DNA from: a bacterium
GTDB taxonomy: Bacteria > UBA8248
Assembly: GCA_965213625.1 (NCBI GenBank)
Contig: CBDBZU010000004.1
Span: 3,456,001 to 3,520,000 of the forward strand
DNA: 64,000 nt
Direction of reading: 5' to 3'
Below are positions 6,874 through 58,172 of this stretch, in pieces (position 1 is the first letter of the stretch; the number at the start of each line of letters is the position of its first letter). The notes under the pieces are model-generated. The model searched no databases, was not told the DNA's origin, and worked only from the letters and a program-made list of their open reading frames with translations. The translations under genes were made by a program, and so were the position numbers.

Positions 6874-8961
6874 ATGACCATCGGAAATGCCACCCTTCGC
6901 GGCGGCCAGACGCTGCTTCACGACGCCCGGATGTGGGGCCAGCTCGCGCGCTGGGGCGTCGTGGGACTAGTACTCGCCATCGTCCTGACCCCTGCGGTGA
7001 GCCTCTTCACGACGACGAGCGCACACGAATGGCGCGTCGTGGGACTCGGGACACTCGCCGAAGCCAAGCTCGCGATCGGGTATTCCCCCGATTCGGGCCA
7101 GGTATACGAGTGGGGAGAAGGCGTGCAGGTGATCGAATCCATCTCCCTGATCGCCTCCGACCCCAGGATCGAGCGCACCAGAAGGCGGTTTCTCGCTATC
7201 ATTCATACGAAAGCGTGGCTGGGCCTCTGGCTGGGGCTCTCGTGTGTCGCCGCATTCATCGTCACCTTCTGGCTGCTGGGACGCCGCATGGCCCGCGCGC
7301 ACAGGGTGCGGGGAGCGGAGATGACGACTGCGGGAGCGCTCGCGAGACGCGTTACGCCTCTCTTCTCCCGCCTGACGGAAAGATTCTTCCCGGCCGCGTG
7401 CAAGTCCACCCCCCGCATCGCGGGCGTCCCCTGGCCCGAGCGTGCCGAAACGCAGCACACCATCGTCTCGGGCACCACGGGTTCGGGCAAGACCGTCCTG
7501 ATATCGGACATGGTCGCGCAGATACGCGCCCGGGGGGAGCGCTGCATTCTTTATGACAAGATGGGGAGCTACACGCGCGCGTTCTTCGACCCCGCACGCG
7601 ACGTACTGATGAACCCCCTCGACGCCCGTGCGCCGCGTTGGTCTCCTTTCCTGGAAGCCAGGACGCCCAGGGACTTCGACACGATGGCGGCTGCGCTCAT
7701 CCCCCAGCAGAAGGACACGGTGGACCCCTTCTGGGTCACGGCCGCGCGGCAACTGTTCGCGAACGGCGCGGGCGTCCTCTGGAAACGCGGCGTGACGGAG
7801 AACAGCGTACTCGTAAAACACCTGCTCAAGACGGAGTTGACTGCCCTCGCAGAGGCCATGGAGGGCACGGTGGCGCAGTCCATCGTGGACCCCGAGAACC
7901 CCAAGACCGCGCTCTCGGTGCGGGCCATGCTGACCGCGCACCTGGGCGCACTCGAGTGCCTGCCCGACTCAGGCGTGCCGTTCTCCATCAGGGAGTGGGT
8001 GGAGCGTGAGAAAGAGACCGGCTTCCTGTTCCTGACCTCCCGCGGGGACCAGCACGCGAGCCTGCGGGGCCTCATCTCGACCTGGCTCGAGATCGCCGTG
8101 AACGCTTTGTTGTCCCTCGGCCGGGACGACGCGCGCAGGATATGGATTGTGCTGGATGAGCTTCCCACTCTCCACCAGGTGCCGAGCCTGCAACCCGGTC
8201 TCGCCGAATCGCGCCAGTTCGGGGGGTGTTTCGTGCTGGGGGTCCAGGTGATCTCCGCCCTGCGCGATTTGTATGGGCGAAACGGCGCCGAGACCGTATC
8301 GGGTCTCTGCGGCACCCGGGTGGTGCTGGCAGCACCCGACCAGGAGACGGCACGCTGGTCGGCCGAGAGTCTCGGCCGCGGCGAGGTGACCGAATACGCG
8401 GAGGGGCTCAGCTATGGCGCCAGCGCGATGAGGGACGGCGTCTCGCTCACACAGCGCCGCGAGATGCGACCCCTGGCGCTGCCTTCCGAAATCATGCGCC
8501 TCGAGAATTTACACGGCTACCTTAAGTTCCCCGGTCCCTGGCCCGTCGCCCGGGTCAGGCTCGACTACGTGAAAAGGCCCAAAGCCGCCGAGAGCTTCAT
8601 CCCGAGAGAGGGTGCGCCGCTTCTCGAAGCAGGTGGAGCGAAAAGCGCTGAAACCGGACCCTCCGGGAAAACGCACGAGTCCAAGAGGGCGGCTGAACCC
8701 GGGGAAGCGACGAATCAGTTGGAACTCGAATTACCCGGCGATGCGACCACAAACGCTAAGCCTGAAGCCGAGCGTGAACGACCCGCTCCGCCGCCGGACG
8801 CGGGCGTGGCGTGGCCCGATCAAGCCCCCGGAACATCCGGAGCGCAACGACCCGCGGCCCACACCGCAGAAGGGGATGACGCCGGTGCGGCTGGCAGCGA
8901 TGAGCGCAACCGGCGCGAAGACGGCGAAGAGGCCGGGCCCCGCACGCCGGACTGGTTGTGA
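6874..8961 (+). CDS. traD: Type IV coupling protein TraD/TrwB family
   Basis: Two N-terminal TMs, Walker A GTTGSGKT, YDKMGSY, DPFW, Walker B IVLDELPTL; start placed at ATG 6874 after AAGGAG. Confidence 0.93.
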   Translation: MTIGNATLRGGQTLLHDARMWGQLARWGVVGLVLAIVLTPAVSLFTTTSAHEWRVVGLGTLAEAKLAIGYSPDSGQVYEWGEGVQVIESISLIASDPRIERTRRRFLAIIHTKAWLGLWLGLSCVAAFIVTFWLLGRRMARAHRVRGAEMTTAGALARRVTPLFSRLTERFFPAACKSTPRIAGVPWPERAETQHTIVSGTTGSGKTVLISDMVAQIRARGERCILYDKMGSYTRAFFDPARDVLMNPLDARAPRWSPFLEARTPRDFDTMAAALIPQQKDTVDPFWVTAARQLFANGAGVLWKRGVTENSVLVKHLLKTELTALAEAMEGTVAQSIVDPENPKTALSVRAMLTAHLGALECLPDSGVPFSIREWVEREKETGFLFLTSRGDQHASLRGLISTWLEIAVNALLSLGRDDARRIWIVLDELPTLHQVPSLQPGLAESRQFGGCFVLGVQVISALRDLYGRNGAETVSGLCGTRVVLAAPDQETARWSAESLGRGEVTEYAEGLSYGASAMRDGVSLTQRREMRPLALPSEIMRLENLHGYLKFPGPWPVARVRLDYVKRPKAAESFIPREGAPLLEAGGAKSAETGPSGKTHESKRAAEPGEATNQLELELPGDATTNAKPEAERERPAPPPDAGVAWPDQAPGTSGAQRPAAHTAEGDDAGAAGSDERNRREDGEEAGPRTPDWL

Positions 8962-11813
8962 TGGTCGTCTCGATCGGCGCCGTCGCCGCCCCCGCACAGG
9001 GTGCCTCCTACTACGAGCGGGACGGCTACTACGCCAGGGACGACCCTGCCCACAGGGAGGTGAGCGCATGGGCCGGCAGGGGAGCGGAGGACCTTGGCCT
9101 CACGGGCCCGGTCGACCCGGAAGTCTTCAAGGCGGTGCTCGAAGGCGAAGTGCCCGACGGTTCGGGGAGAAAGCTCGGACGCAGGCGCAAGGACGGCATC
9201 CTGGAGCACCGTCCCGGGCGCGACCTCACTTTCTCGGCCCCCAAATCCGTCTCGCTCGCCGCGCTGGTGGGCGGCGACGCCCGTGTCGTCGAGGCCCATG
9301 AGCGGGCGGTCGAGCGCACCCTCGCCTGGGTCGAGGGCAACGCCGCTGAGACCAGGATGAAGGACCCGGATACGGGAGGCATGGTCAAGGTCTGTGATCA
9401 GAAAACGGTGGCCGCGACCTTCCGCCACGACGCCTCGCGCAACCTCGACCCCCAGCTTCACACCCACGCGGTGCTGGCCAACATGGTCCAGGGTCCGGAC
9501 GGCAAATGGAGGACGATGTCCAACGAGGCGCTCTACCGCCGCCAGAAGCTGATCGGCATGCTCTACAGGAGCGAGCTGGCGCAAGAGTTGGGGAAGCTGG
9601 GCTACGGGATTGAGAAGACACACGCCGACGGGCGGTTCGAGGTCGCTGGCATTCGCCGCGAGGTGATCGAGGCGTTCTCGACCCGGCGGGCGGAGATCGA
9701 GGCGGCCATGGCCGAGCGGGGCCTGGGAACGACGGCTGCGAACCAGCGCCTCGCAGAGCGCGCGGCGCTCATGACCCGCGCCCGCAAGCGCGACGTGGAC
9801 AAGAGCGCGCTCAGGGGTATATGGGAGAAACAGGCAAAAGACTTAGGATTCGACCCCAAAGCCCTTGCGGCCGAAGCAGTGTCCCGGGCCGCCGGCCTGG
9901 AAGGCGCAGTAGAGACCCATGAGCCGTCGCAGGACCGGGGAATTGCCCAAGAAACCGGTCCGGCCGGTGAGGCCGCGGAATGGGCCGTGTCGCATCTCGC
10001 GGAGCGCGAGGCCGTGTTCGCCCGCGGCGACGCGCTTGCCGCCGCGCTGGCCTGGCGGCCGGGCGCGGTGTCCATCGAGTCGGCGGAGAGGGCGCTGGGC
10101 GATCTCGAAAGAGAGGGCCGGCTCCATGCCGCTCCGGCGCTCAAGGGGGGCGACGGCCTCACAACTGATAAGGCGCTGGCGGACGAGCGCGAGACGATCG
10201 GGCTGATGCGGGTCGGCCAGGGCCGGGGCCGGGCGGTGATGCGCACCTGGATGGTGCAGGCGCATCTGCACAAGGGACCGCTGACACAAGGCCAGAGGGA
10301 AGCGGTCAAGCTCATCCTCTCGGCCAAAGATCGCGTCGTCGGCGTACAGGGCTATGCCGGGACCGGCAAGACCACCATGCTCAGCCGTGCCCGCGCTCTC
10401 CTCGAAAAACGCGGGTTCGAGGTCAAGGGCCTCGCGCCGTCGGCCTCGGCGGTGAAGACGCTCGGAACCGAGGCCGGGATCGAGAGCGAGACGCTGCAGC
10501 GTTTCCTCACCCGAAACACCGGCGTGGCTGAAGGCAAGCTCACCAGAAAGGCCGAGAAGCAGATGCGCGCGGCCTGGGGCAAGACGGTTCTTGTGGTGGA
10601 CGAAGGGTCCCTCGCCTCCACCCTGCAGGCCCGCGACCTCCTGCGGGTTGCAGGCGCCTTGCGCATCCCCAGGGTCGTGCTGGTGGGCGATGAGAAACAA
10701 CTGGACGCCGTGGACGCCGGCAAGCCCTTCGCGCAACTCCAGCAAGCCGGTATGAAGACCGCCGTGATGGACGATATCCTGCGCCAGCGCGACCCGGAGC
10801 TTAAAGCCGCAGTCGAGGCGAGCCTCGCCGGCGAGATCGGCCGCGCGTTCGAGAAGCTCGGGTCGAACGTCGCGCAGGTGAAGGCAGACAACATCGCGGG
10901 CGCGGTGGCGGCGCGCTGGCTCGAACTGTCCCCCGAGGCGAGGGAGAACACCGGCGTCATGGCGCCCAGTCATGAACTTCGCCAGAAGATCAACGCTCAT
11001 ATCAGAGAGCGTCTCGCGCGTGAGGGCCGTATCCACGGCCCCGCCTTCAGGGGGGAGCGGCTCGTCTCGCGCGGTTATACGAACCCCGAGAAATCGCTCG
11101 CCGCGAACTACGCCCCGGGAGACGTCGTGGCCTTCCACCGCCCCTACAAGCGCATGGGTGTCGAGAAGGGCGACGAACTCCGCGTATCGGGCGTGGATCA
11201 CGAGAACCAGACGGTGATGCTCGAAGGCAAGGACGGCGGGAGCGTCTCATGGAAGCCCGGGCGGATTGCCGGGCGGAGCGGCGGCGCCGAGGTCTACCGG
11301 GCCGAAGAGATCGAGCTTCGCGCCGGCGACCGGGTACGCTGGACCCGCAACGACATGGGCTCAGGCCTCGTCAACAGCCGCACGGCCGACGTGCTTTCGG
11401 CCGGGAACGGCCACGTCTCCTTCCGCCTCGAAGACGGGCGCAGGCTCGGCATGACCTCGGGCGATCCCCAACTGCGCCATCTCGACCATGCATGGGCCTC
11501 GACCGTGCATGCCTTCCAGGGCCGGACCGTAGACAACGTGATCGCCGCGATGCAGGCCAACCACCCCCACCTCACCACGCAGAAGAGCTTCTACGTGGAG
11601 CTCAGTCGTGCCCGCGACCGGGCCGAACTCGTGACCGACGACGCGAATGCCCTGCGCCAGCGGCTCGAAACCGCGACTGGAGAGCGGATTGCGGCGCTGG
11701 ATGGGATCGGGCAAGCGGCGCGGGACACGCTGGTGAAAGAGACGGGAGCGGAGTCTAAGGCGGGACAAACGGCGGTGCGAGAGAAGCAGGTCGAGCCGGG
11801 TCTCGGTTTATGA
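8958..11813 (+). CDS. traI: MOBF conjugative relaxase-helicase (TrwC/TraI type)
   Basis: YYERDGYY catalytic tyrosines, DLTFSAPKSVS, HUH motif HDASRNLDPQLHTH, helicase GYAGTGKT and HAWASTVHAFQG. Confidence 0.95.
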   Translation: MMVVSIGAVAAPAQGASYYERDGYYARDDPAHREVSAWAGRGAEDLGLTGPVDPEVFKAVLEGEVPDGSGRKLGRRRKDGILEHRPGRDLTFSAPKSVSLAALVGGDARVVEAHERAVERTLAWVEGNAAETRMKDPDTGGMVKVCDQKTVAATFRHDASRNLDPQLHTHAVLANMVQGPDGKWRTMSNEALYRRQKLIGMLYRSELAQELGKLGYGIEKTHADGRFEVAGIRREVIEAFSTRRAEIEAAMAERGLGTTAANQRLAERAALMTRARKRDVDKSALRGIWEKQAKDLGFDPKALAAEAVSRAAGLEGAVETHEPSQDRGIAQETGPAGEAAEWAVSHLAEREAVFARGDALAAALAWRPGAVSIESAERALGDLEREGRLHAAPALKGGDGLTTDKALADERETIGLMRVGQGRGRAVMRTWMVQAHLHKGPLTQGQREAVKLILSAKDRVVGVQGYAGTGKTTMLSRARALLEKRGFEVKGLAPSASAVKTLGTEAGIESETLQRFLTRNTGVAEGKLTRKAEKQMRAAWGKTVLVVDEGSLASTLQARDLLRVAGALRIPRVVLVGDEKQLDAVDAGKPFAQLQQAGMKTAVMDDILRQRDPELKAAVEASLAGEIGRAFEKLGSNVAQVKADNIAGAVAARWLELSPEARENTGVMAPSHELRQKINAHIRERLAREGRIHGPAFRGERLVSRGYTNPEKSLAANYAPGDVVAFHRPYKRMGVEKGDELRVSGVDHENQTVMLEGKDGGSVSWKPGRIAGRSGGAEVYRAEEIELRAGDRVRWTRNDMGSGLVNSRTADVLSAGNGHVSFRLEDGRRLGMTSGDPQLRHLDHAWASTVHAFQGRTVDNVIAAMQANHPHLTTQKSFYVELSRARDRAELVTDDANALRQRLETATGERIAALDGIGQAARDTLVKETGAESKAGQTAVREKQVEPGLGL

Positions 11814-24428: not shown

Positions 24429-24815
24429 TCATATTGAAGTATCGTTCAGGAACACAGCCTGGGACTCGCGAGCGTCTTTCATGATCCGGTCGAGGTCGTC
24501 CTTGCGTCCTTCCCGTACCAATTCATCCCGCTTCAGCGTGGAAAGGAGGTAAACCCCGCGATAGATACGCTCGATCTGCGCAGAGATTCCGGATGGTATC
24601 GGGCCGGAATCAGCGCCGGTTTCTTCTCCGGCGAGCGCCAACGCGGCGTTGCGAATGAACTCGGCAGCAGTGACTCCGCTCCGCCTGGCGGCGATTTCGA
24701 CCCGTTCCCATTCGGTATCGGAGAAGCGGATGGTCCTCGACATGCGCGCGTGGCTTTGTTTTTCTTCTGTGCCGGCATCGTCTCCGGTCGGTTTTTGGTC
24801 GATTCCGCTCATCAT
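24429..24815 (-). CDS. Ribbon-helix-helix relaxosome accessory protein (MobC/TrwA-like)
   Basis: RTIRFSDTEWERVEIAARRSGVTAAEFIRNAAL RHH pattern; GAGG RBS; adjacent to a candidate oriT; paralog at 60843. Confidence 0.7.
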   Translation of the reverse strand: MMSGIDQKPTGDDAGTEEKQSHARMSRTIRFSDTEWERVEIAARRSGVTAAEFIRNAALALAGEETGADSGPIPSGISAQIERIYRGVYLLSTLKRDELVREGRKDDLDRIMKDARESQAVFLNDTSI

Positions 24816-25107: not shown

Positions 25108-25157
25108 TGCAGCCCGCTGCGTGGGGTGTGTAACCCGAAGCGCCGAAGGGCGGCTAA
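25108..25157 (+). other. Candidate oriT 1 (MOBF nic after 25129)
   Basis: TGCGTGGGGTGT^G at 25118-25130 matches the F-plasmid nic core; conserved at 45576 and, as a variant, at 60385-98. Confidence 0.75.
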
Positions 25158-25518
25158 TTATGCCGTTATCCGGCGAAGCGTCATCGGCGGTAATGGCCGA
25201 TGCATGAACGCTTTGGAGCCAACGCGGCGATTGAGCGAGATGACCGGGCGCGACCACGGGACGCGTACCGTGTCCTCTTCCCGTGAACAGGGGTAACAAA
25301 AGCAGGCGTGAGTCGCAAGGGAGCGGGTGAGTTTTTCACACGCCGCGCACCGCGGGACTCAGGTGAGCGGCATGTGGTTTCACGCGTTACCTTTACGCAA
25401 CGTGGAGAGGTTCACAAGTTACCCGCTCGTCAGGGAGCGGGCGGTCGTGAGTGGAGGAAGGCTTGTTCGGAGGGAAAAGGGCCGCGCCGCCTGTCGACGC
25501 GACCCGTGGAGTGCCACA

Positions 25519-26472
25519 TCAGGCGGTGATTCTCTGGACGGGAATGCCGAGCGCCCGGGCCTTGTCGACGAGGTTGTCGGTGATGCCCGAACCCGGGAAG
25601 GCGATCACGCCCTTGGGCAGGAGTGCGAGGAGTTCGTCGTTGCGCCGGAAAGGAGCGGCCCGTCCATGCGCCTCCCAGTCCGGCTTGCATACCACCTGGT
25701 GAACGCCGTTGCGCTCGGCCCATCCCGCCGCGATTTTCTCAGCGCCGGGGCCGCCGCCGTGGACGAGGACGACGTCGGCGTACTTGGCCTTGACCTTGTC
25801 GAGGTGGCCGATGATTATGCCCGCATCGCTCGCCTCCTTTCCTCCCGCGACGGCGACGAGGGTTCCCTGGGGGAGGTGGGAGGTGTTCGCGCGGTCCTTG
25901 CGCGCCCGCTGGAAGTCGCGCGCCTCGATCACGGCGGAGGTGAGCTTGCCGGTCTGGCTGACGTGCGAGCCTCGCCTCGGCCGCCATACCTCGCCGGTCT
26001 CGATGCGGTAGGCCTCTGCGGCCGTGTCCCTGAGCCCCTCGAACGCATCGCGCCTGTCATTCAGGTTCTGGGCGTGGTCGGTCTTGAGTTCGAGTTCGCG
26101 CGATCTGATCTCGGAGCCGTCCTGCTCGCGCTGGAGTTCGCGGACCCCGGGGATGAGTTTGTCGGCGGCGCGGTCGAGCCGCTGTGTCTGGGCGTCTAAG
26201 GCGTTGACGAACCCCCACAGGAGGCTCGCCCGCTCATCCGCAAGCTGCGTTCCGTCAGGCGCAGCTTCTGCGAGTGCGCCGAAGGCCCTGATGACGGCGG
26301 CGGTTGCCTCGCCCTCGTCCCACACGGGGCGGTTGTCGAACTCGTCCGGCCCCGGGGTCACGCCGAACAGGGCGGCCTGCTCGCAGACCATGGCGGTGAA
26401 AGATTCGTTCCGTGCTTCGTGTTCCGTGTGCTCGTGCATGATGCTCTCCTTGTGGTCGTGTGTAGCGGTCAT
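25519..26472 (-). CDS. DUF2493 / YspA-like SLOG-domain protein, copy 1
   Basis: C-terminal VAVAGG...VLVHGG..GAE.IA..WA...RRN...VIAFPG.GIT.NLV.KA...GIPV; helical N-terminus. Confidence 0.85.
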   Translation of the reverse strand: MTATHDHKESIMHEHTEHEARNESFTAMVCEQAALFGVTPGPDEFDNRPVWDEGEATAAVIRAFGALAEAAPDGTQLADERASLLWGFVNALDAQTQRLDRAADKLIPGVRELQREQDGSEIRSRELELKTDHAQNLNDRRDAFEGLRDTAAEAYRIETGEVWRPRRGSHVSQTGKLTSAVIEARDFQRARKDRANTSHLPQGTLVAVAGGKEASDAGIIIGHLDKVKAKYADVVLVHGGGPGAEKIAAGWAERNGVHQVVCKPDWEAHGRAAPFRRNDELLALLPKGVIAFPGSGITDNLVDKARALGIPVQRITA

Positions 26473-26493
26473 CGTTCACTCCTTTGGTTGTCC

Positions 26494-26865
26494 TCAAGCG
26501 AGGGGATGGTTGAATTCAGGAAGAGCGTAGCCACGCTCGTTGCGCCCCACTTCTTTGGGCATCTCGTCGAGATATTTGTCTGCCCACTCGGCGGCGCGCG
26601 CGAGGACGTCGCCGTGGCACGGAAGAGGATGGCAGTGGCAGCCGAGCTCGCAGCCAAGAAGGTCGGCGAGTTCGTAGAGGTCCAGCTCCTCGCGCCGGAT
26701 TTTTCCCCACAGCCATTGCCGGTATTTTTCGATGACGGCTTCTCTGTCGCCGTCCTGTCCGACGCGGAAGGGATTTCCCCACTTCGTCATGCGGTCGATC
26801 CTCACCATCAAGCCGCTGCCGAGTTCATCGACATAGTCGTTCAGGTTCACCACGGTGGTTTCCAT
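26494..26865 (-). CDS. DUF4326-domain protein, copy 1
   Basis: IDR.TKWGNPF, R..VIEKYR.WL, LGCHC.P.PCHGDVL. Confidence 0.88.
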   Translation of the reverse strand: METTVVNLNDYVDELGSGLMVRIDRMTKWGNPFRVGQDGDREAVIEKYRQWLWGKIRREELDLYELADLLGCELGCHCHPLPCHGDVLARAAEWADKYLDEMPKEVGRNERGYALPEFNHPLA

Positions 26866-26900
26866 GCCTTACTCCTTTCCAGAGAGTTAACGGATGCGCT

Positions 26901-27350
26901 TCTTGCGTCCCATTTTCAGCACGTAAGGGCGCCGGTCGGTGTATCCGGCGCCCGCAGGCGGGCGAATCAAGGGCTCGTCATTTTCCGGGGGGTTCCCGAA
27001 AAACACGCTTCATCGTTTTTTGGGGGGTACCGGCAAATGATGGCCGCTTGCGGCCACCCTTTATTCGCCCGGCGTTCGTGCTAAAATGAGGACGCCAAGA
27101 GAGAGACAGTTGATTCGCCACCGGGACACAAGAGTTTTTGGGTGTTTCACGATGAAGGCGAAGCTCATCGGGAAACAATCTCTCATGCTGCGGAGAGGGT
27201 CATTCCGGGCCGTTATTCGGCCCGGAATTCCCGCAGCGGGGGGTGGATTGAGCCACTGTTCAGGGATGTGGTGATTGCAGGCGCATGCCGATCTTCCGTG
27301 AACATGGTTTATCGTTCACGGAACCGGAAGTTTACCGGGTGTTCCCGGTA
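26901..27350. promoter_or_regulatory. Conserved two-domain structured non-coding element (candidate ssDNA promoter/ssi), copy 1
   Basis: Nested inverted repeats; conserved with compensatory changes at about 47228-47678 and 58271-58723. Confidence 0.7.
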
Positions 27351-27422
27351 GAGGAGAGGGCCGGCAGGACGGGAAAGGCGCGGCGCTTCGGCGGTGGACT
27401 TCCTCCGGACAACGGGCATAAG

Positions 27423-27458
27423 AAAAGGGGTCGACGCGCGTGATGGCGCCGACCCCTT
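27423..27458 (-). terminator. Intrinsic terminator after ssb
   Basis: AAGGGGTCG...CGACCCCTT hairpin followed by a T-run on the minus strand; repeated at 47753-87. Confidence 0.7.
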
Positions 27459-27464
27459 GTGAGC

Positions 27465-27884
27465 CTAGAACTTGATGTCGTCCTCCTCGCCCCCGACCCC
27501 TGCGACGACGGGCGCGCCGTTTTCGTTTCCGTTCACCTTGTCGAGGAACTGGATTTTCCCGCCCGGAGCGATGAGTATCTCGGTGGAGAAGCGCTCCGAA
27601 TCCTCCTCATCCTTCTTCCAGCGGCGGGTCTGGAGCTTGCCCGCGACATATACCAGGCGGCCCTTCTTCGCGTGGCGTTCGAGCATGTCCACCAGGCCGG
27701 GCTGGAAGGTCACGACCCGGTGCCATTCCGTTTTGTCGATACGGTCGCCGGATTGCCTGTCCACGTACCCCTCATCAGTGGCAATCGATATGTTGGCGAC
27801 GCGTCCCCCGCTCGCGAGATGGTTGATGGTGACGTCGGTGCCGAGACGCCCGATCAGTTCCGCACGGTTCAGTCCGAATGCCAT
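27465..27884 (-). CDS. ssb: Single-stranded DNA-binding protein, copy 1
   Basis: LN.AELIGRLG, KTEWHRVV.F, KG.LVYV.GKLQTR.W, acidic tail DDIKF. Confidence 0.95.
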   Translation of the reverse strand: MAFGLNRAELIGRLGTDVTINHLASGGRVANISIATDEGYVDRQSGDRIDKTEWHRVVTFQPGLVDMLERHAKKGRLVYVAGKLQTRRWKKDEEDSERFSTEILIAPGGKIQFLDKVNGNENGAPVVAGVGGEEDDIKF

Positions 27885-27963
27885 TTTGATACTCCTTGTA
27901 GTGTGGGGTGAATGATAAAGTCGAGGAGCCGGGAATCCTCTCTCCCCGGCCCCCCGGTTCGCC

Positions 27964-28098
27964 CTATACGCCAATCAACTCATCCGACTCCTCTTTCGCC
28001 TCGGTGCGGATGACTCGGATCGTGTAGGCGCCCAGTCCGATCTCGACGAGCAGTTCGTCACTGGTGAACATCTCGTAGTCGAAGTCGTTCTCGTACAT
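27964..28098 (-). CDS. Unannotated 44-aa acidic protein
   Basis: MYENDFDYEMFTSDELLVEIGLGAYTIRVIRTEAKEESDELIGV; GAGAGGAGG RBS; paralog at 48302-48433. Confidence 0.7.
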   Translation of the reverse strand: MYENDFDYEMFTSDELLVEIGLGAYTIRVIRTEAKEESDELIGV

Positions 28099-28283
28099 GG
28101 CCGTGCCTCCTCTCGGGGTTGTCGCCGACGGCGGGAGCCTGAGACCGTCTCCCTCTCCCTGCCGGGCATTTGCCCGGCTCCCCGCTTCGCTCTCACTCTC
28201 GAGAGGAGGTCCTCACCCGGCGGGGAGCGCTCGCGGAACGCGCCTGCCCTTGCATCGGGCCCTGAATTATTGTGGGATGAGGC

Positions 28284-28664
28284 ATGGACGGACGAAGGCG
28301 CACGGGAAGATTCAGGTTCTGGTTACCGGCGCTCCTGTGGCTGCCGGCGGGGCTTCTCGCGGACGAGTTTCTGCGCACGGGCTCCGCGGAGCAGGTGGTG
28401 ACGCCCTCCTCGCTCATGGAGTTGCCGGCGGTTGCTCCGTTCGGCCTGCCGCTTGCGCTCACATGCCGGCGTTTGAATCGCTCGGGCTATCCGGGTCCCG
28501 CCCTGATGGCGTGGTTGGCCCTCGGCGCAGCCTCGGCAGGGGGTCTCTTCGGTCCGCTCCCCGTGGGCGTTCAGGCGCTCGCAGCCTGCCTTCCCGTCTG
28601 GGTTTTGACGTGGTGGCTCCCCCCCCGCCTGAAATTCGATCCGTTGTTACGGCGCCCGAAGTGA
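28284..28664 (+). CDS. Hypothetical membrane protein, copy 1
   Basis: About four hydrophobic segments; paralog at 48637-49043. Confidence 0.6.
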   Translation: MDGRRRTGRFRFWLPALLWLPAGLLADEFLRTGSAEQVVTPSSLMELPAVAPFGLPLALTCRRLNRSGYPGPALMAWLALGAASAGGLFGPLPVGVQALAACLPVWVLTWWLPPRLKFDPLLRRPK

Positions 28665-28826
28665 GGGAGGTCCCGCGGGCCCTTCCGCGCCGGGCGCTAA
28701 GGCCCCATCGGGTGCCTGACTACTGACGACGGGCCGGCGGCGTAGCAGGGCGGCGTCGAACCCTCCCCCCCTCCGTCGTCGGCCCGACGGCGGTACGTAC
28801 CCACGCCGTGCTGGCTCGGATGACGC

Positions 28827-29639
28827 TCACCACCCGGCGAGCCTGGATATCACGGGCGCGTCCTCGATGACTTCCACTTCCTCTCGGGAGAGCCTCTTGA
28901 AGGCGAGGTACATCGCCACCTCTTCCCAGGAGTCGAGGGGCCCGTGCTCGGCGCCCGTGGCCACTTCAACTATGGTGTAGCGCGGCGGAAAGACCGGCAT
29001 TCCCTTGTGCTCACCCGAGGAGTGGTATGATCGCACCGAGCAAGGGACGCACCTCGATGCTCCTTACGTGTCGGATGATTGGCAATCCACGCAGATTTCA
29101 AGGGCGCGCCTCTCGCGATAGCGTTTCCTGCTCGCTGCGTTCTTTCGCGGACGGCGCTTCATGTCCCTTGCGGCGCACGAAGCGCACGTCGAAGCCTTTT
29201 CGATTGCGGCGCTTCCACAACGACCGCAAAGGCCGGAGGATCTCCTTTTTTCATAAAGCTTCTTTTCCGCTGCGCGACGCGAATCCCTGCAAATTTCGCA
29301 GAGGGCGCCGCCCTCGGCGGGTTTTCGTTCACCGCAAGTCGTGCAGAGCCCGGCTTCGATACGCTCGCGCCTGCGTTTTCTCGCCCTCTCGCGCGCCATG
29401 CGCCGGCGGCTCTCGGGACAGCGCCCGCCGTATGCGGATCCCTCGAGTTTTCCCCTGGCGTATCGGGCGCGCTCGGATTTGCGTCCTCTCTCGAGGCAGT
29501 TTGCGCAAAGACTTCGTTCGGGCGCAGGCCGTCTGCGCCCGCATTTGATGCACATCCCTCGCGCTCTGCGCGATTCGGCCCTCCGCCTGTGGCGTTCGCG
29601 CTCGCATTCGCGTCGAATATCCAAATTCTTGTGGGGCAT
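28827..29639 (-). pseudogene. Arg-rich poly-CxxC (Zn-ribbon repeat) protein, copy 1, in-frame stop
   Basis: Collinear with the intact copy at 49162-49977; TAA at 29064-66. Confidence 0.75.
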
Positions 29640-29689
29640 GGTTTCCTCCGAATGTCGTTCGTCTGACGGCGAGACGTCTAGCGCGGCAA

Positions 29690-29992
29690 TTATCCCCGGC
29701 TGAGCATCCGGCCCCACACGAGGTGCTCGCCCCAGAGCTGAAGGCCGCTTTCGGGGACCTTGAGCCCCGTGCATACGATGAGCTCGTCCCGTGCGGGACG
29801 CATCTCCCGCACCGCCCGGCGCGAGGCCGTCACGCGTTTGCTCTTGCGCCCCCCGTTCCCCGGGGCGGCTACGGGACGAATGCCGCCCCGGGCATCGGAT
29901 TTATAGCGTTTGACTTCGTATCTCTCATCCGCCAGGCCAGGGCCTGAGAGATGGGTGAGGAAGGTGTTGGCTTCGGGTTTCGGTTTACGCAT
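29690..29992 (-). CDS. Conserved basic hypothetical protein (MRKPKP...), copy 1
   Basis: AAGGAGG RBS; strongly similar paralog at 50058-50357. Confidence 0.7.
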   Translation of the reverse strand: MRKPKPEANTFLTHLSGPGLADERYEVKRYKSDARGGIRPVAAPGNGGRKSKRVTASRRAVREMRPARDELIVCTGLKVPESGLQLWGEHLVWGRMLSRG

Positions 29993-30330
29993 CGCGCGCC
30001 TCCTTGGGTGGGTGATCGGGAAGGCGAAGAACGTCCTCTCGCAGACCTCCTTCCGCCGCCCCCTCCCGGCCCGGCTCCGCCTCTTCGAGAGGTAGGGCAA
30101 GGAAATGACGCCGAGCAAAACCTAGCGAAAAAATTGTGGAGTTCGCCTTGATTGCTTCAGGTATGCGAGGCGCCGGTCGGGTCGGGCGGTGCCACGCAGC
30201 AACCGGTGCAGGTTTTTGTGGAAACCCCGCGCTCCTGGTTGCGCGCTGCGATTGCGGGAAAGATAATATGGCCAAGTGGAGGAAAAGGGTTCCGCCCGCC
30301 GTCGCGCCATGATATTCGAGCGGCGACGTG

Positions 30331-45565: not shown

Positions 45566-45615
45566 TGCAGCCTGCTGCGTGGGGTGTGTAACCCGAAGCG
45601 CCGAAGGGCGGCTAA
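45566..45615 (+). other. Candidate oriT 2 (nic after 45587)
   Basis: GCTGCGTGGGGTGTGTAACCCGAAGCGCCGAAGGGCGGCTAA is identical to the oriT 1 core. Confidence 0.75.
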
Positions 45616-45844
45616 CGGCGGATTCCTGGGAACGAACGACAGGGGAATTTTTGCCGTCGATAATGGCGAGCGGGAGCCGCCGCGGCGATTGAGCGGGAAG
45701 AGCAATGCGGGGAGATGTTCCTGAGGCAAGACCAGCGGAGTCTTCATCGTTGCCGGCGCAAGCGACGCGAGCGTTGGTCGACGAGACGCAACGGGCCGCG
45801 CCGCCACCGGGCGGGGTGGCGACGCGACCCGAGGAGTGTTGGCA

Positions 45845-46798
45845 TCAGGCGGCCACGCGTTGCACGGGAATACCGAGGGTTTTAGCTTTGTCGACGAGGT
45901 TGTCGGTGATGCCGCTGCCTGGGAACGCGATCACGCCCTTGGGCAGGAGGTTGAGGAGTTCGTCGTTCCTGCGGAAGGGAGCGGCCCGACCGTGCGCGTC
46001 CCAATCGGGCTTGCAGACGACCTGGTGGACGCCGTTCCGCTCGGCCCAGCCCGCTGCTATCTTCTCCGCACCGGGACCGCCGCCGTGGACGAGGACGACG
46101 TCGGCGTACTTGGCCTTGACCTTGTCGAGATGCGCGATGATTTTCCCCGCGTCGTTCGCCTCCTTGCCGCCCGCGACGGCGACGAGGGTTCCCTGGGGAA
46201 GATGCGCGGTGTTCGCGCGGTCCTTGCGCGCCCGCTGGAAGTCTCGCGCCTCGATCACGGCGGAGGTCAGCTTACCGCTCTGGCTGACGTGCGAGCCTCG
46301 CCTCGGCCGCCATACCTCGCCGGTCTCGATGCGGTAGGCCTCTGCGGCGGTGTCCCTGAGTCCCTCGAAGGCGTCCCTGCGCTCCGTGAGGTTGTTGGCC
46401 CGGTCGGTCATGAGTTCGAGTTCGCGGGAGCGGATCTCAGAGCCGTCCTGTTCGCGCTGGAGTTCACGGATACCGGGGATGAGTTTGTCGGCGGAGCGGT
46501 CGAGCCTCTGGGTCTGGGCGTCGAGGGTGTTGACGAAGCCCCACAGGAGACTCGCCCGCTCGTCGGCAAGCCGTGTTCCGTCGGGTGCTGCTTCCGCGAG
46601 TGCGCCGAAGGCCCTGATGACGGCGGCGGTGGCCTCGCCCTCGTCCCACACGGGGCGGTTGTCGAACTCATCCGGCCCTGGAGTCGCGCCGAACAGGGCG
46701 GCCTGCTCGCAGACCATGGCGGTGAAAGATTCGTTCTGCGCTTCGTGTTCCGTGTGCTCGTTCATGTTCATCTCCTTGTGGTCGTGTGTAGCGGTCAT
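45845..46798 (-). CDS. DUF2493 SLOG protein, copy 2
   Basis: Near-identical to 25519-26472. Confidence 0.85.
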   Translation of the reverse strand: MTATHDHKEMNMNEHTEHEAQNESFTAMVCEQAALFGATPGPDEFDNRPVWDEGEATAAVIRAFGALAEAAPDGTRLADERASLLWGFVNTLDAQTQRLDRSADKLIPGIRELQREQDGSEIRSRELELMTDRANNLTERRDAFEGLRDTAAEAYRIETGEVWRPRRGSHVSQSGKLTSAVIEARDFQRARKDRANTAHLPQGTLVAVAGGKEANDAGKIIAHLDKVKAKYADVVLVHGGGPGAEKIAAGWAERNGVHQVVCKPDWDAHGRAAPFRRNDELLNLLPKGVIAFPGSGITDNLVDKAKTLGIPVQRVAA

Positions 46799-46819
46799 CG
46801 TTCACTCCTTTGGTAGTCC

Positions 46820-47191
46820 TCAAGCGAGGGGATGGTTGAATTCAGGAAGAGCGTAGCCACGCTCGTTGCGCCCCACTTCCCTGGGCATCTCGTCGAGATA
46901 CCCGGCTGCCCACTCGGCGGCGCGCGCGAGTACGTCGCCGTGGCACGGGAGGGGCCGGCAGTGGCAGCCGAGCTCGCAGCCTTGGAGGTCGGCGAGTTCG
47001 TGGAGGTCCAGTTCCTGGCGCTGGATTTTTCTCCACAGCCATTGGCGGTATTTCTCGATGACGGCGTCGCGGTCGCCGTCGGCGCCGAGCCGGAAGGGAT
47101 TCCCCCACTTCGTCATGCGGTCGATCCTCACCAGCAATCCACTGCCGTTTTCTGCAACGTAGTCGTTCAGGTTCACCACGGTGGTTTCCAT
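46820..47191 (-). CDS. DUF4326 protein, copy 2
   Basis: Near-identical to 26494-26865. Confidence 0.88.
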   Translation of the reverse strand: METTVVNLNDYVAENGSGLLVRIDRMTKWGNPFRLGADGDRDAVIEKYRQWLWRKIQRQELDLHELADLQGCELGCHCRPLPCHGDVLARAAEWAAGYLDEMPREVGRNERGYALPEFNHPLA

Positions 47192-47227
47192 GCCTTTCTC
47201 CTTTTCAGAGAGTTAACGGATATGCTT

Positions 47228-47678
47228 CTTAGCGTCCCATTTTCAGCACGTAAGGGCGCCGGTCGGTGTATCCGGCGCCCGTAGGCGGGCGAATCAAGGG
47301 CTCGTCATTTTCCGGGGGGTTCCCGAAAAACACGCCTCATCGTTTTTTGGGGGGCACCGGCAAATGATGGTCGCCTGCGGCCACCCTTTATTCGCCCGGC
47401 GTTCGTGCTAAAATGAGGACGCTAAGAGAGAGACACTAGTACCGTCACCGGGACACAAGAGTTTCTGGTGTTTCACGATGAAGGCGAAGCTCATCGGGAA
47501 ACAATCTCTCATGCTGCGGAAAGGGTCATTTCGGGCCGTTATTCGGCCCGGAATTCCCGCAGCGGGGGGTGGACCGAGCCACTGTCTTGAGCATGGAATG
47601 ATCGCAGGCGCAAGCCGATCTTCCGTGAACATGGTTTATCGTTCACGGAACCGGAGGCTATCGAGGTGTTCCCGGTAG
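47228..47678. promoter_or_regulatory. Structured non-coding element, copy 2
   Basis: Same nested stems as 26901-27350. Confidence 0.7.
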
Positions 47679-47795
47679 ACGAGAGAAGCCTACAGGGAGG
47701 GAAAGGCGCGGGCGCTTCGGCGGTGGACTTCCTCCGGACAACGGGCATAAGAAAAGGGGTCGACGCGCGTGATGGCGCCGACCCCTTGTGAGCAC

Positions 47796-48221
47796 TTAAA
47801 ACCGGATGTCCTCCTCCTCACCCCCGACCCCTGCGGCGACGGGCACGCCGTTGCCGTTGTTGTTCCCGTTCGCCTTGTCCAAAAACTGGACGACCCCGCC
47901 GGGTGCTACGAGTATCTCGGTCGAGAAGCGTTCCGAATCCTCCTCGTCCTTCTTCCAGCGACGGGTCTGGAGCTTGCCCGCGACGTAGACCAGACGGCCT
48001 TTCTTCGCGTGCCGCTCGAACATGTCCACCAGGCCGGGCTGGAAGGTCACGATCCTATGCCACTCCGTTTTCTCCACCCTCTCACCGGATTGCTTGTCCA
48101 CGTAGCCCTCATCGGTGGCGATGGATAGATTTGCGACGCGTCCCCCGCTCGCGAGATGGTTGATGGTGACGTCGGCGCCTAAGCGCCCGATCAGTTCCGC
48201 ACGGTTCAGTCCGAATGCCAT
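47796..48221 (-). CDS. ssb: Single-stranded DNA-binding protein, copy 2
   Basis: SSB motifs, tail EEDIRF. Confidence 0.95.
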   Translation of the reverse strand: MAFGLNRAELIGRLGADVTINHLASGGRVANLSIATDEGYVDKQSGERVEKTEWHRIVTFQPGLVDMFERHAKKGRLVYVAGKLQTRRWKKDEEDSERFSTEILVAPGGVVQFLDKANGNNNGNGVPVAAGVGGEEEDIRF

Positions 48222-48301
48222 TTTGTTACTCCTTGAAGTGTAGTGTGGATGATAAAGTCGAGGAGCCGGAAATCCTCTCTCCCCGACCCCCCCCGTTCGT
48301 C

Positions 48302-48433
48302 CTAAACGCTACAAAACTCCACTTCGCCGTCCGCCTCGGCGCGCAGCTTGCGGATCGTGTACGCATCGAGTCCGAGTTCTGCGAGCAACTCATCCGCGGT
48401 GGGAACGTCGACGTCGTAGTCGTTCTCGTACAT
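48302..48433 (-). CDS. Unannotated 43-aa acidic protein, copy 2
   Basis: MYENDYDVDVPTADELLAELGLDAYTIRKLRAEADGEVEFCSV; same RBS as copy 1. Confidence 0.7.
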   Translation of the reverse strand: MYENDYDVDVPTADELLAELGLDAYTIRKLRAEADGEVEFCSV

Positions 48434-48636
48434 GGCCGTGCCTCCTCTCGGGTTGTCCCCGGCGGCGGGAACTGGAGACCGTCTCCCTCCCCCCTACCGG
48501 GTATTTGCCCGGCTCTCCGCTTCCCTTTCACTCTCGAGAGGAGGTTCTCACCCGGCGGGAACCACTCGCGCAAGGTGTTTGCCTTTACCGCGGATTCGTG
48601 TCAGACAGCGCACGGAGGTGAGGAAGGGAGGAGGTA

Positions 48637-49043
48637 TGGAACGACTCAAGCTCTGGTTGCCGGCGCTGCTGTGGCTGCCTGCGGGGATTATCGCAGAGGA
48701 GGTTCTGCGCACCGGGTCAATGGAGGGTGCAGATACGCTGCTTGACGTCCTGGAGTTGCTGCCCGCCGCTCCGTGCGGCATCCCCCTCGCGCTCGCCTGC
48801 CGGCGACTTGCCCGCTCGGGCTATCCGGGTCCCTCCCTGGTGGCGTGGTTGCTACTCGGCGCGGCCTCTGTGATGGGCTTCCTCGGTCCGCTCCCCGTGG
48901 GCGTTCAGGCGCTCCTGGTCTCTTTTCCGGTATGGATGGCGGTGTGGCGCCTCGAGCGTCGGCCCCGCGGCCCGGGATTCGCCCCTTCGTCAAGGCGGCC
49001 GGGGCGCGGGAGGTCTCAGGGGCCGTACCGCCCCTGGTCCTGA
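48637..49043 (+). CDS. Hypothetical membrane protein, copy 2
   Basis: GGAGG RBS before MERLKLWLPALLWLPAG; paralog of 28284-28664. Confidence 0.6.
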
Positions 49044-49161
49044 GGCCCCGCGGAGACGTCCGATACAGGTCGACTCCCCCCGTCGAAGCCTCCCGCAGGA
49101 ATCCAGACGCCGTGGGGCCGGCTGCGGAGCAGGTCGGCGTCGGCGGCACGTGCAGGCGCGC

Positions 49162-49977
49162 TCACCAGGGAGCCGCGGTGAGTTTCGCCATCACGCAGGC
49201 ATCCTCCACGACCTCGACCTCATCGCGTGAGAGTTTCGCGAAGGCGAGGCACATGGCGACCTCCTCCCAGGAGTCCAAAGGTCCGTGCTCGATGCCCGTG
49301 GCCAGTTCCACCACGGTGTAGCGTGGTGGATGGACGGGCATTCCCCGGTGTTCGCCCGATGAGAAATACGATCGCCTGGCGCACGCCTCACACCTGGCTG
49401 CTCCATGAGAGGGGGCTGCGCAGTCAACACATGCCCCGCGGGCGCGCCTTGTATGATAGCGCGCCCGGCTGGCGGCGTTCTTGAGCGGACGGCGCTTTGA
49501 ATCCCTTTTGGCGCACGAAGCGCACGTCGAAGCCTTTCCGGTTACGGCGCCTCCGCAACGACCGCAAAGGCCCCTGGAGCGTCTTTTTTCATAGAGCTTC
49601 TTCTCCTCCGCCCGCCTCGCTTCCCGGCAGGCCTCGCAGACGACGCTGCCCTCCGCCGGAGCAAACTCTCCGCAGCGTACGCATAACCCGGCCTCCTTGC
49701 GCTCGCGCCTGCGCTTTCTCGTCCTCTCCCGCGCCATGCGCCGGCGGCTCTCGGGATCCCGCCCGCCGTATGCAGTTCCCCCTGCCCGGGCTCTCAAGTA
49801 GCGGGCGCGCTCGGCGACTCGGCTTCTATCGAGGCAGACCTCGCATAGGCTTCGCCCGGGCGCAGGAGGTTTTTTCCCGCATTTTGGACAAAGGCCCATC
49901 TCCTTGCGTTTGGCCGCCCGCCTCCTGTGGCGTTCGCGTTCGAAAGCGCGTCTTCGCTCCGGGTCCTTGTGGGGCAT
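49162..49977 (-). CDS. Arg-rich protein with 8 CxxC motifs (four putative Zn ribbons)
   Basis: CPKC/CEVC, CVRC/CEAC, CGRC/CASC, CVDC/CEAC separated by Arg-rich helices; AAGGAGG RBS. Confidence 0.75.
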   Translation of the reverse strand: MPHKDPERRRAFERERHRRRAAKRKEMGLCPKCGKKPPAPGRSLCEVCLDRSRVAERARYLRARAGGTAYGGRDPESRRRMARERTRKRRRERKEAGLCVRCGEFAPAEGSVVCEACREARRAEEKKLYEKRRSRGLCGRCGGAVTGKASTCASCAKRDSKRRPLKNAASRARYHTRRARGACVDCAAPSHGAARCEACARRSYFSSGEHRGMPVHPPRYTVVELATGIEHGPLDSWEEVAMCLAFAKLSRDEVEVVEDACVMAKLTAAPW

Positions 49978-50057
49978 CCTCTCTCCCTCCTTTGGGTGGA
50001 TGGAATCCGTACGGCCGGCGCCTGGCAGGACGTCCTCCCGGCGCGGGCCGGGAAGCC

Positions 50058-50357: not shown

Positions 50358-50529
50358 CGCGCGGCCTCCTTGGAATGGGTGGATGATGGCGGCGACCGGT
50401 ACTGACCGGAGAGGGAGAACCTCCCTCCCGGACGCCCCGCCGCGCCTCCTCCCGGCCCGGCTCGGCCTCTTGGCGGCGCAAAGTGCGCCGGGGTCTTTCA
50501 CGGGAAGGGTGTGTCCGGGTCGTGGCCGT

Positions 50530-58130: not shown

Positions 58131-58137
58131 ACACGAC

Positions 58138-58172
58138 AAGGGCCGGCGCTACGGCGTCGGCCCTTTCATTTT
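58138..58172 (+). terminator. Intrinsic terminator after ssb copy 3
   Basis: AAGGGCCGGCGC-TACG-GCGTCGGCCCTT followed by a T-rich tail. Confidence 0.7.

Follow-up and report, generated by a model that had tools for sequence, protein, structure and literature searches.

What is the function of a cassette of mostly uncharacterised genes that begins at a predicted conjugative nick site and recurs within a few tens of kilobases? The cassette examined here occupies positions 25109-30085 of a stretch of 64,000 nt (hereafter, the window; positions 3,456,001 to 3,520,000 of contig CBDBZU010000004.1, assembly GCA_965213625.1, from a bacterium of the lineage UBA8248). From the predicted nick outwards it contains the open reading frames (ORFs) for a DUF2493 protein and a DUF4326 protein, a folded non-coding segment designated S, ssb, an acidic ORF, a hydrophobic ORF, a gene for a Zn-ribbon protein and a gene whose product starts with MRKPKP. 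An earlier note, made from the sequence alone, had listed this order; ORF and Pfam analyses agree with it and add one ORF (28827-29000) between the hydrophobic and the Zn-ribbon genes. On balance, we favour the interpretation that the region is the leading module, proximal to the origin of transfer (oriT), of an F-type integrative conjugative element (ICE), with a MOBF relaxase and an F-type secretion system, and that it works by the mechanism proposed below. The two other copies in the window belong to neighbouring related integrative elements, one of them complete and probably mobilisable and the other decayed. The earlier note had proposed an establishment and anti-defence kit; the anatomy and polarity that it described are well supported, and an anti-defence function is a proposal that draws on domain fusions and on literature about related folds.

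Repeats, origin of transfer and polarity

BLASTN aligned 25492-30085 with 45817-50471 (79.9 % identity over 4702 columns) and 25479-27800 with 60180-57780 in inverted orientation (83.1 %), and thus bears out the recurrence reported before, complete at 45588-50480 and partial at 57780-60385. A separate block of 50 nt, 25108-25157, is 98 % identical at 45566-45615 and 92 % at 60412-60363, and a separate repeat search recovered the same pattern of copies. We designate these as copy 1 (25109-30085, + strand), copy 2 (45566..50471, + strand) and copy 3 (57780..60412, - strand).

The oriT core of copy 1 (25109..25157, + strand) comprises a GCAGC..GCTGC inverted repeat, the sequence GTGGGGTGT (25121-25129), a predicted nick between 25129 and 25130, and a small hairpin, CGCC-GAAG-GGCG. 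The + strand reads GCAGCCCGCTGC-GTGGGGTGT-GTAACCCG, with the inverted repeat GCAGCCCGCTGC stopping one base before the nick core. In the oriT of F, as described in the passages of PMC3074121 drawn on here, a hairpin is followed by GTGGGGTGT, the nick and GGT, and the relaxase ends up attached to the DNA on the 3′ side of the nick. The 13-mer TGCGTGGGGTGTG, present in copies 1 and 2, is identical to this published F oriT (PMC3074121); it appears only twice in the 4.15-Mb genome, both times at the predicted nick sites, and none is expected by chance in the window. Among the 11 copies of the module in the genome, the stem 5′ of the core is GCAGC/GCTGC, GCACC/GGTGC or GCATC/GATGC, compensatory changes preserving the pairing. 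The core itself varies at positions 3-5, a range that includes positions 3 and 5, at which F differs from R100 (core GTAGTGTGT in the same passages of PMC3074121). We predict that the relaxase would nick the + strand after GTGGGGTGT, beside its recognition hairpin; the coordinates 25130, 45588 and 60385 given earlier for the three copies coincide exactly with the base that follows each predicted nick.

A MOBF relaxase, a TraD-type coupling protein and F-type secretion genes are encoded in cis. The relaxase-helicase gene (8958..11813, + strand), of the TrwC/TraI type and part of the conjugative element that owns copy 1, matched Pfam TrwC (3.5e-86) and the NCBIfam models MobF (297.4 bits, cut-off 100) and relax_trwC (283.6 bits, cut-off 145.5), and its best PDB matches were TrwC (1omh, 5e-63) and TraI of F (1p4d, 2e-53). 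Pfam also identified the coupling protein (6739-8961) and the genes for TraN, TraF, TraH and TraG (154-6377). On the far, lagging side of the nick there is a gene for a NikA/MobA-like ribbon-helix-helix accessory protein (24429..24815, - strand), transcribed away from the nick; its Pfam score, 27 bits, is exactly the cut-off, and its match to NCBIfam MobA is weak. Homologues of this gene adjoin the nick in 4 of the 11 copies of the genome and in several related loci. The palindromes of the lagging side (24900-25100 of the window) vary by copy, being either GTATGCT..AGCATAC or ATACCA..TGGTAT; they sort with element type and are candidate binding sites for accessory proteins.

With the nick core on the + strand and the relaxase-linked 5′ end leading, DNA of higher coordinates should enter the recipient first. 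The + strand would then arrive single-stranded, 5′ end first, bringing in DUF2493, DUF4326, S and ssb in that order. Eight of the nine ORFs of the cassette are on the - strand, so that the entering + strand should be their template, and only the hydrophobic ORF is on the + strand; this is as previously stated, namely that all genes except the membrane gene point to the nick and that the predicted transferred strand is their template. Genes templated by the transferred strand are the pattern of F, and of leading regions generally, in the portions of PMC9849209 and PMC11541004 used here. From these positional arguments, it is likely that the cassette is a leading region. The opposite polarity, by which the cassette would enter last as a lagging-end module, has in its favour the position of the relaxase gene, 13 kb from oriT at lower coordinates, and its transcription in the direction of oriT, an arrangement that differs from those of F and R388. 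Nevertheless, the + strand carries the F-type core and its hairpin in the orientation published for F, in which the relaxase is bound 3′ of the nick, the accessory gene is across the nick and directed away from it, and the + strand is the template for eight of the nine ORFs, the known pattern of leading regions, so we consider a reversed transfer very improbable.

The folded segment S

S spans 26866..27424 (+ strand), directly upstream of DUF4326, and is conserved, strongly folded and non-coding. The structured DNA noticed earlier at this place is real, and no other segment is strongly folded: folds of the 599 nt separating DUF4326 from ssb are well below those of their shuffles (z = -10.2 for + strand DNA, -7.1 for + strand RNA and -8.1 for - strand RNA), and in a 200-nt sliding fold scan of 24.8-30.6 kb only S had z < -3 (-8.1, -5.0 and -3.8, + strand). 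Between copies 1 and 2, S is 90-95 % identical, whereas the genes are 76-85 % identical, the median dS of the neighbouring genes being 0.25-0.53. S contains a compound hairpin of ca. 210 nt (26896-27105), with the sequence TGCTAAAAT (27078-27086) on its 3′ arm, followed by three conserved hairpins (ca. 27140-27340). Just past the ssb stop codon there is a terminator-like hairpin (27425..27458, - strand), with a stem of 13 pairs followed by TTCTTAT on the - strand.

The outer stem of the compound hairpin is common to all copies and carries one of two unrelated tops, found in 6 and 5 of the 11 copies of this genome, while TGCTAAAAT occurs on the 3′ arm in 22 out of 22 copies (11 from this genome and 11 from relatives). 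The 23-pair stem around TGCTAAAAT is 97.3 % paired across 21 distinct sequences, compared to 41-58 % when slid, and three of its pairs are compensatory. In the second version of the hairpin (5 of the 11 own copies), the sequence TTGACC is situated 15 nt upstream of TGCTAAAAT; promoter boxes were scored by the sigma-70 consensus of Escherichia coli, which may not be that of the host. The alignment folds better as + strand than as - strand, both with RNA (-148.0 vs -131.7) and with DNA (-57.4 vs -50.8) parameters, and one pair of S is C-G in three copies, T-G in five and T-A in three. The better + strand fold and the G-T pairing would fit the transferred strand, but also, equally, an RNA of + strand sequence.

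A promoter on the 3′ arm of a hairpin reads the 5′ arm as template, and transcription therefore leaves the base of the hairpin towards lower coordinates. In the mechanism that we propose, S would fold on the entering strand to a long stem-loop with an extended -10 box, TGCTAAAAT, on its 3′ arm, and RNA polymerase would start on this hairpin at ca. 26905 and proceed through the leader to transcribe DUF4326 and DUF2493 ahead of synthesis of the complementary strand. The predicted start leaves a leader of 40 nt, with the ribosome site AAGGAG seven bases ahead of the start codon of DUF4326 (26865). The transcript from the hairpin may also prime the complementary strand. In our judgement, the case for S acting as a single-strand promoter or priming site is evenly balanced.

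The resulting layout is similar to that of the leading region of F, which contains oriT, Frpo1 with ygeA and ygeB, and Frpo2 with ssb, psiB, psiA and flm. In the portion of PMC9849209 used here, Frpo1 and Frpo2 drive early genes from single-stranded DNA, and a gene in the opposite orientation is turned on only after conversion to double-stranded DNA. F and the module share a MOBF relaxase, GTGGGGTGT and a nick followed by G right after a hairpin, genes directed towards oriT with the transferred strand as template, a plasmid-type ssb, and a long non-coding stem-loop with promoter boxes (putative in S) upstream of the oriT-proximal genes. Both also have one gene of opposite orientation, that of the module being the hydrophobic ORF, which would be expressed only after second-strand synthesis. 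The differences are also clear. In sequence, S resembles neither Frpo nor any of 72,556 plasmids; there is a single hairpin per module, instead of two, and it is located downstream of ssb and predicted to drive DUF4326 and DUF2493; psiB, psiA, ardA, klcA and flm/hok are not among the Pfam matches of the module; and, unlike F, the module is part of elements that are integrated in the chromosome and have tyrosine integrases, with 11 copies of it in the genome. With the anatomy of a promoter hairpin and no sequence match, S would thus be Frpo-like in anatomy and lie outside the Frpo sequence family. The module likewise resembles the anti-defence islands of plasmid leading regions (Samuel et al., 2024; PMC11541004) in its position next to oriT, its strand bias and its ssb, and S is a candidate single-strand promoter by the criteria in the sections of that paper considered here, secondary structure plus -35 and -10 boxes. 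It differs from those islands in lacking all the anti-defence families named in the same sections; of the 11 files in the supplement of that paper, the 10 that are searchable contain none of the terms DUF2493, DUF4326 and YAcAr, and the other is a scanned PDF.

Alternatively, S might be mainly the gene for a structured non-coding RNA of ca. 350 nt, transcribed as the + strand of duplex DNA from TGCTAAAAT to the hairpin at 27425-27458, that would regulate transfer, maintenance or competition of related elements, a role compatible with that of a single-strand promoter. In duplex DNA the extended -10 box on the + strand reads rightwards, and nothing in the cassette varies less than the stretch that follows it (27095-27340). 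The RNA folds are also far under those of the shuffles (z = -7.1 for the + and -8.1 for the - strand), and the G-T pairs favour the + strand, as fits this RNA and the transferred strand alike. However, the + strand T run at the hairpin 27425-27458 is poor, no Rfam family reached the gathering score in the whole window, with three chance-level matches over S at E < 1, and a plain RNA gene leaves unexplained the large hairpin upstream of the putative RNA start, which is equally conserved. We consider an RNA gene unlikely as the main function of S.

Several further observations concern S. The three hairpins of its second half (27140-27340) are almost invariant in the 11 copies, and neither the promoter reading nor Rfam accounts for them; they could be a priming site or part of an RNA. 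A small ORF within S (27152-27274, + strand) was judged to be non-coding, since a hairpin loop is longer by a 2-nt insertion in one of the copies and the substitutions group as non-synonymous changes. A blastn search with S of 50,697 phage records (E <= 0.001) gave no match. Contigs from a sponge metatranscriptome contain relatives of DUF2493 and ssb and almost nothing over S; this lack of cover is uninformative, and the library may include DNA.

The genes of the cassette and their possible roles

The DUF2493 gene (25519..26472, - strand) codes for a 317-aa protein of the YAcAr family of SLOG proteins (Pfam PF10686, 77.7 bits vs 28.2), a family of 5955 representative clusters at E <= 0.001. 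Its AF2 model (pLDDT 83.9) shows a long N-terminal helical hairpin followed by a C-terminal SLOG Rossmann domain. For this Rossmann-type domain the PDB gave, all with weak E-values, LOG-type phosphoribohydrolases, TM1055, a Moco carrier and, further down, DprA as neighbours; fold matches at E <= 0.001 were obtained to 51 YAcAr proteins from phages and giant viruses. The DUF4326 gene (26494..26865, - strand) codes for a protein of 123 aa (Pfam PF14216, 84.3 bits vs 25), with the motif C..C.P..CH invariant in an alignment of 53 sequences; all 53 homologues match the DUF4326 profile, and one of them also has a DprA domain. Foldseek found nothing in the PDB at E <= 0.001 with the DUF4326 model (AF2, pLDDT 84.3), and sequence searches of the PDB with DUF4326 and DUF2493 gave nothing meaningful. 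In a wide VIA-align search, the NADAR protein 8bau ranked first (Z 4.1, rmsd 4.5, 83 residues aligned), a second NADAR enzyme, YbiA (2b3w), took fourth place (Z 3.5), and numerous dual-specificity phosphatases followed closely (Z 2.7-3.1); at such scores a match is only a lead. DUF4326 is placed in the rhodanese-phosphatase superfamily in the literature extracts available for it, and none of the 53 members matches Pfam NADAR (PF08719).

These two genes are adjacent in all 11 copies, and probably act together. Among 23 long homologues scanned there was one YAcAr-DUF4326 fusion and one NADAR-YAcAr fusion, and a single PHROG profile holds both YAcAr and DUF4326. According to the parts of PMC7824862 and PMC9503650 consulted, YAcAr SLOG domains are predicted to use NAD or ADP-ribose derivatives, and both families are placed in NAD/ADP-ribose networks. 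NADAR enzymes reverse ADP-ribosylation of DNA, and phages carry them against DarTG1, as summarised in the source extracts on this family. Additionally, a preprint, of which we used a part, reports that the phage protein ORF83, with a SLOG fold, is a factor against type III Avs and that its giant-virus homologues carry DUF4326. The fusions among SLOG, DUF4326 and NADAR, together with the SLOG-fold anti-Avs protein, point to processing of nucleotides or ADP-ribose, and the SLOG and DUF4326 proteins would probably act jointly on a molecule derived from a nucleotide or from NAD/ADP-ribose. That they would thereby counter a nucleotide- or ADP-ribose-based defence is a tentative proposal, and a DprA-like role on single-stranded DNA has a similar probability.

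The DUF2493 protein is like the phage and giant-virus SLOG (YAcAr/LOG-like) proteins, including the anti-Avs ORF83 of that preprint extract, in that its model has the same PDB neighbours (5wq3, 1wek and 3uqz), that SLOG is coupled to DUF4326 and that the carrier is mobile. The likeness to ORF83 lies in shared fold neighbours and not in a direct sequence comparison; the protein described here adds an N-terminal helical part of ca. 200 residues, and the biochemical activity of every member of the viral group is predicted. DUF2493 homologues of the same length are also found in alphaproteobacterial plasmids (for example pLVM1, CP029174, and pMHa, CP006582), a few kb from traCDG or a relaxase gene, with DUF4326 near DUF2493 in one of the two records examined (pLVM1, on the same strand). 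They differ from the module in that the relaxases of pLVM1 are MOBP/MOBQ, in that a primase and a large methylase replace S, ssb and the Zn-ribbon protein, and in that the match at the DNA level is confined to the DUF2493 part. Among the matching plasmids, 217 out of 350 were typed as conjugative.

The ssb gene (27465..27884, - strand) codes for 139 aa ending in the acidic tip EEDDIKF (Pfam SSB PF00436, 84.5 bits, cut-off 26; TIGR00621, 93.8 bits vs 53.95), and there is a separate chromosomal ssb elsewhere in the genome. The element's own SSB would coat the incoming strand. No other gene of the cassette has a recognised role, and any anti-defence role is one that we infer. All nine ORFs are under purifying selection among the copies of the genome, with dN/dS of 0.13-0.55 (0.13 for DUF2493 and ssb, and 0.26 for DUF4326). 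The distal operon starts with the gene for the MRKPKP protein (29690..29992, - strand; 100 aa; 9 copies, 75-88 % identity; dN/dS 0.22), which had no match in Pfam, PHROGs, NCBIfam or the Protein Atlas. It is followed by the gene for the arginine-rich Zn-ribbon protein (29064..29639, - strand; 191 aa; dN/dS 0.36), with three CxxC..CxxC zinc ribbons and a final CxxC. Its cysteine pairs are invariant in the alignment and are situated between arginine-rich stretches; its Pfam zinc-ribbon matches are all sub-threshold, the Protein Atlas gives a weak, below-threshold lead to phage double-zinc-ribbon clusters, and a PDB sequence search found nothing meaningful. The cassette also contains a 57-aa ORF starting MPVFPPRY (28827..29000, - strand; 9 copies; dN/dS 0.17) and the acidic ORF of 44 aa (27964..28098, - strand; dN/dS 0.27), present at 10 places of the genome, in one with a stop at codon 2. 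The hydrophobic ORF of 126 aa (28284..28664, + strand; dN/dS 0.55) is an open frame at 10 places, with 42-67 % identity there, and is the fastest evolving gene of the cassette, with 39-78 % identity across copies; it may be under diversifying pressure, and a toxin or exclusion role is conceivable. The five cassette proteins other than DUF2493, DUF4326 and ssb had no match in Pfam, PHROGs, NCBIfam and PADLOC.

The gene content leaves room for a second interpretation, by which the cassette is a core module for DNA processing and establishment rather than a counter-defence kit, serving to protect the strand, to prime its complement and to control recombination or the SOS response. The SLOG protein would then act like DprA, with SSB, on incoming single-stranded DNA, S would be a single-strand origin from which the second strand is made, and the Zn-ribbon protein would bind DNA. 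Single-strand origins are known on ICEs, as in the literature on ICEBs1. The SLOG domain has DprA (3uqz) as one of its structural matches, a DprA domain is present in one DUF4326 homologue, and no related element examined lacks the module, which in compact integrase-relaxase elements accounts for a large share of the element; selection on the proximal genes is strongly purifying (dN/dS 0.13-0.26). However, LOG-type nucleotide hydrolases outscore DprA in that same structural list, and the NADAR and DUF4326 fusions point to small-molecule chemistry. A core module of this kind has a minor but real share of the probability in our assessment, below that of the leading module with the proposed mechanism.

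Several observations tell against the proposed mechanism. Regarding S, covariation lends the stem modest support, as 15 of its 23 pairs are invariant; six of the 11 copies have a poor -35 box (TTTATT) and the other five a short spacer of 15 nt; in duplex DNA, TGCTAAAAT would give a + strand RNA across the invariant 27095-27425; and blastn of S against the 72,556 plasmids (E <= 0.001) gave no match, hence none to Frpo. When a further folded element was sought ahead of the distal operon, a short GC-rich block proved to be conserved and no fold stood out; with a single hairpin found, the operon from MRKPKP to ssb is left without an identified single-strand promoter. Regarding the genes, DprA has the SLOG fold too, so that the handling of DNA is just as open a possibility; DUF4326 resembles NADAR weakly (Z 4.1 and 3.5); no known anti-defence or defence family was matched by the cassette proteins in Pfam, PHROGs, NCBIfam and PADLOC. 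Among these same matches there is no ardA, klcA/ardB, psiB or acr family, in agreement with the earlier remark that ardA, psiB and klcA are not recognisable here. The module is also a large part of compact integrase-relaxase elements in many relatives, which fits a core housekeeping role equally, and the assembly is of metagenome style with 5.2 % contamination, so that the order of the repeats may hold assembly errors. A bolder version of the mechanism seems to us rather doubtful: that S represents a new single-stranded promoter or priming family in F-type elements outside enterobacteria, unrelated in sequence to Frpo, which would switch on a YAcAr SLOG protein and a rhodanese-phosphatase-like DUF4326 protein, a pair destroying a nucleotide- or ADP-ribose-derived immune signal or a DNA adduct.

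Copies of the module and the elements that carry them

The genome amounts to 4.15 Mb in four contigs (96.6 % complete, 5.16 % contamination), the contig of the window being 4.13 Mb. A tblastn search found 11 DUF2493-DUF4326 pairs, each accompanied by S and by the nick block, and the distal genes have 9-10 copies each; there are three intact relaxase genes and a broken one, and two sets of secretion genes. The copies of the module differ by 8-24 % in DNA. By these sequence comparisons, the copies are diverged modules of related integrative elements and not a fresh triplication, and the region is an ICE with neighbouring integrative elements, not a plasmid. The term "triplicated" used previously describes the three copies in the window and is too narrow, these being part of a family of ICEs and integrative mobilisable elements that share an 11-copy core.

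Copy 2 is a complete module with the same nick core as copy 1 and a predicted nick between 45587 and 45588. Its lagging side adjoins a tandem integrase pair instead of an accessory gene, and no relaxase or secretion genes of its own exist within the window; it is probably mobilised by a neighbouring element. Integrative mobilisable elements with an oriT like that of a helper ICE are known, such as those mobilised by SXT/R391. Copy 2 is comparable to these, its hairpin and nick core being those of copy 1 and its own relaxase and secretion genes being absent within the window, with the difference that the part shared here is a gene module of 4.9 kb and not oriT alone. Copy 3, inverted and partial, has the nick core GTTCCGGTGT followed, across a predicted nick between 60386 and 60385, by G. 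It retains intact DUF2493, S and the nick block, while its ssb lacks the first ca. 27 codons and begins at ca. codon 28 beside an integrase gene (56176-57402), its DUF4326 is frameshifted and split over two frames, and the adjoining NikA-like frame has no start codon. On this evidence copy 3 is a relic. Its core GTTCCGGTGT is shared with another element of the genome, whose own relaxase is 68.5 % identical to that in the window.

The copies could also be an in-place duplication, or an artefact in the assembly of a repeat-rich metagenome, copies 2 and 3 then having no independent function. The genome is indeed of metagenome style, with the contamination given above, the gene order around copies 2 and 3 does not correspond to clean nested insertions, and the 5′ half of the ssb of copy 3 is absent from the window. 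Nevertheless, the copies are 12-24 % apart in DNA, mostly by synonymous differences, and have different flanks; copy 2 keeps all the ORFs and the exact nick core, yet its lagging side is unrelated; and similar multi-copy sets are present in 13 of 22 congeneric genomes, several of them assembled in a single contig. We thus regard this explanation as extremely improbable.

Of 22 further genomes from the genus, 13 contain S, one of them with as many as 19 matches, and there was no real match among 18 genomes from outside the genus, which gave one chance hit of 22 nt. A scan with the Zn-ribbon protein (one genome per species) identified 30 loci, nearly all from metagenome-assembled genomes (MAGs) labelled Nitrospinota, Nitrospinaceae or "bacterium". 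The survey of gene neighbourhoods that had been suggested shows synteny between MRKPKP and DUF2493 to be complete in 21 of the 30 loci; of the others, five stop at the edge of the contig or locus. In 8 of the 30 the relaxase gene is directly at the MRKPKP end, often followed by an integrase pair; in such compact elements, flanked in this way by relaxase and integrases, the module is a large share of the whole element. Complete or partial cassettes (66-87 % protein identity) also occur on two contigs of 29 kb (L050) and 2.7 kb (L061), binned in an alphaproteobacterial and a gammaproteobacterial MAG, respectively, because of either mis-binning or transfer to other hosts.

The ssb of the module seems to serve as a target of integration. 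In three of the 11 copies the first ca. 27-40 codons are missing, in one of them (57780-58130 of the window) next to the integrase gene at 56176-57402, and there are two orphan 5′ pieces of ssb (codons 1-38), each followed by an integrase gene (C4:15451-15564 and C4:52327-52674 of the genome). Another ssb is divided by an insert of 36.7 kb that itself holds a cassette, and in a contig from a related MAG an integrase cuts ssb after codon 71 (L047:3438-3884).

The remainder of the window contains genes of the elements described and their cargo. Between the relaxase gene and oriT there is a CRISPR-Cas set (GSU0053/GSU0054/Cas3/Cas4/Cas1, 13237-21345) and an array of six repeats (21822-22226); the six spacers of this array had no match in the rest of the genome and so gave no sign of targeting rival copies. 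Large helicases matching profiles of defence-system helicases (DpdF and GajB), plus AbiEi/AbiEii, are encoded between copy 1 and the tandem tyrosine integrases (42894-45807). One of these helicases, very large, is in two ORFs separated by 42 nt (30510-31430 and 31473-35588), in which a RecQ/DEAD part resembling DpdF or PsyrT is joined to a UvrD/GajB-like part; a frameshift or a stop codon may account for the split at 31430/31473, or the two genes may be real. Tandem pairs of tyrosine integrases appear at ca. nine places of the genome, usually at the far end of the cargo behind a cassette. The sole large cargo gene of the element owning copy 2 codes for a Calx-beta protein of 1744 aa (50923-56157), and a near-identical paralogous region at ca. 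46-52 kb of the contig has the matching integrase reduced to fragments. The integrase at 56176-57402 is the third in the window, and a second UvrD-type helicase is encoded beyond the inverted copy 3. No tRNA genes were found in the window.

Single-strand promoters and early leading-region genes have been demonstrated experimentally only for a few enterobacterial plasmids. The module described here would extend the same design, with an F-type nick core, genes read off the incoming strand and a folded, promoter-like hairpin, to chromosomal elements of an uncultured marine lineage, with parts unrelated in sequence to the known ones and with dozens of diverged natural copies available for comparison. 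It also puts DUF2493/YAcAr and DUF4326, both found in thousands of plasmids and viruses, in the position predicted to be expressed first, which offers a clear and cheap experimental route to their function. If S is a promoter for a signal-destroying pair, two domains widespread in plasmids, phages and giant viruses would gain a role in counter-defence. The presence of 11 modules in a genome of 4.15 Mb, together with the insertions into the ssb of the module, shows that such elements strongly shape these genomes. With its F-like nick site, its strongly folded DNA element and its constant set of mostly uncharacterised genes, the module lends itself as a natural system for the study of how conjugative elements become established.

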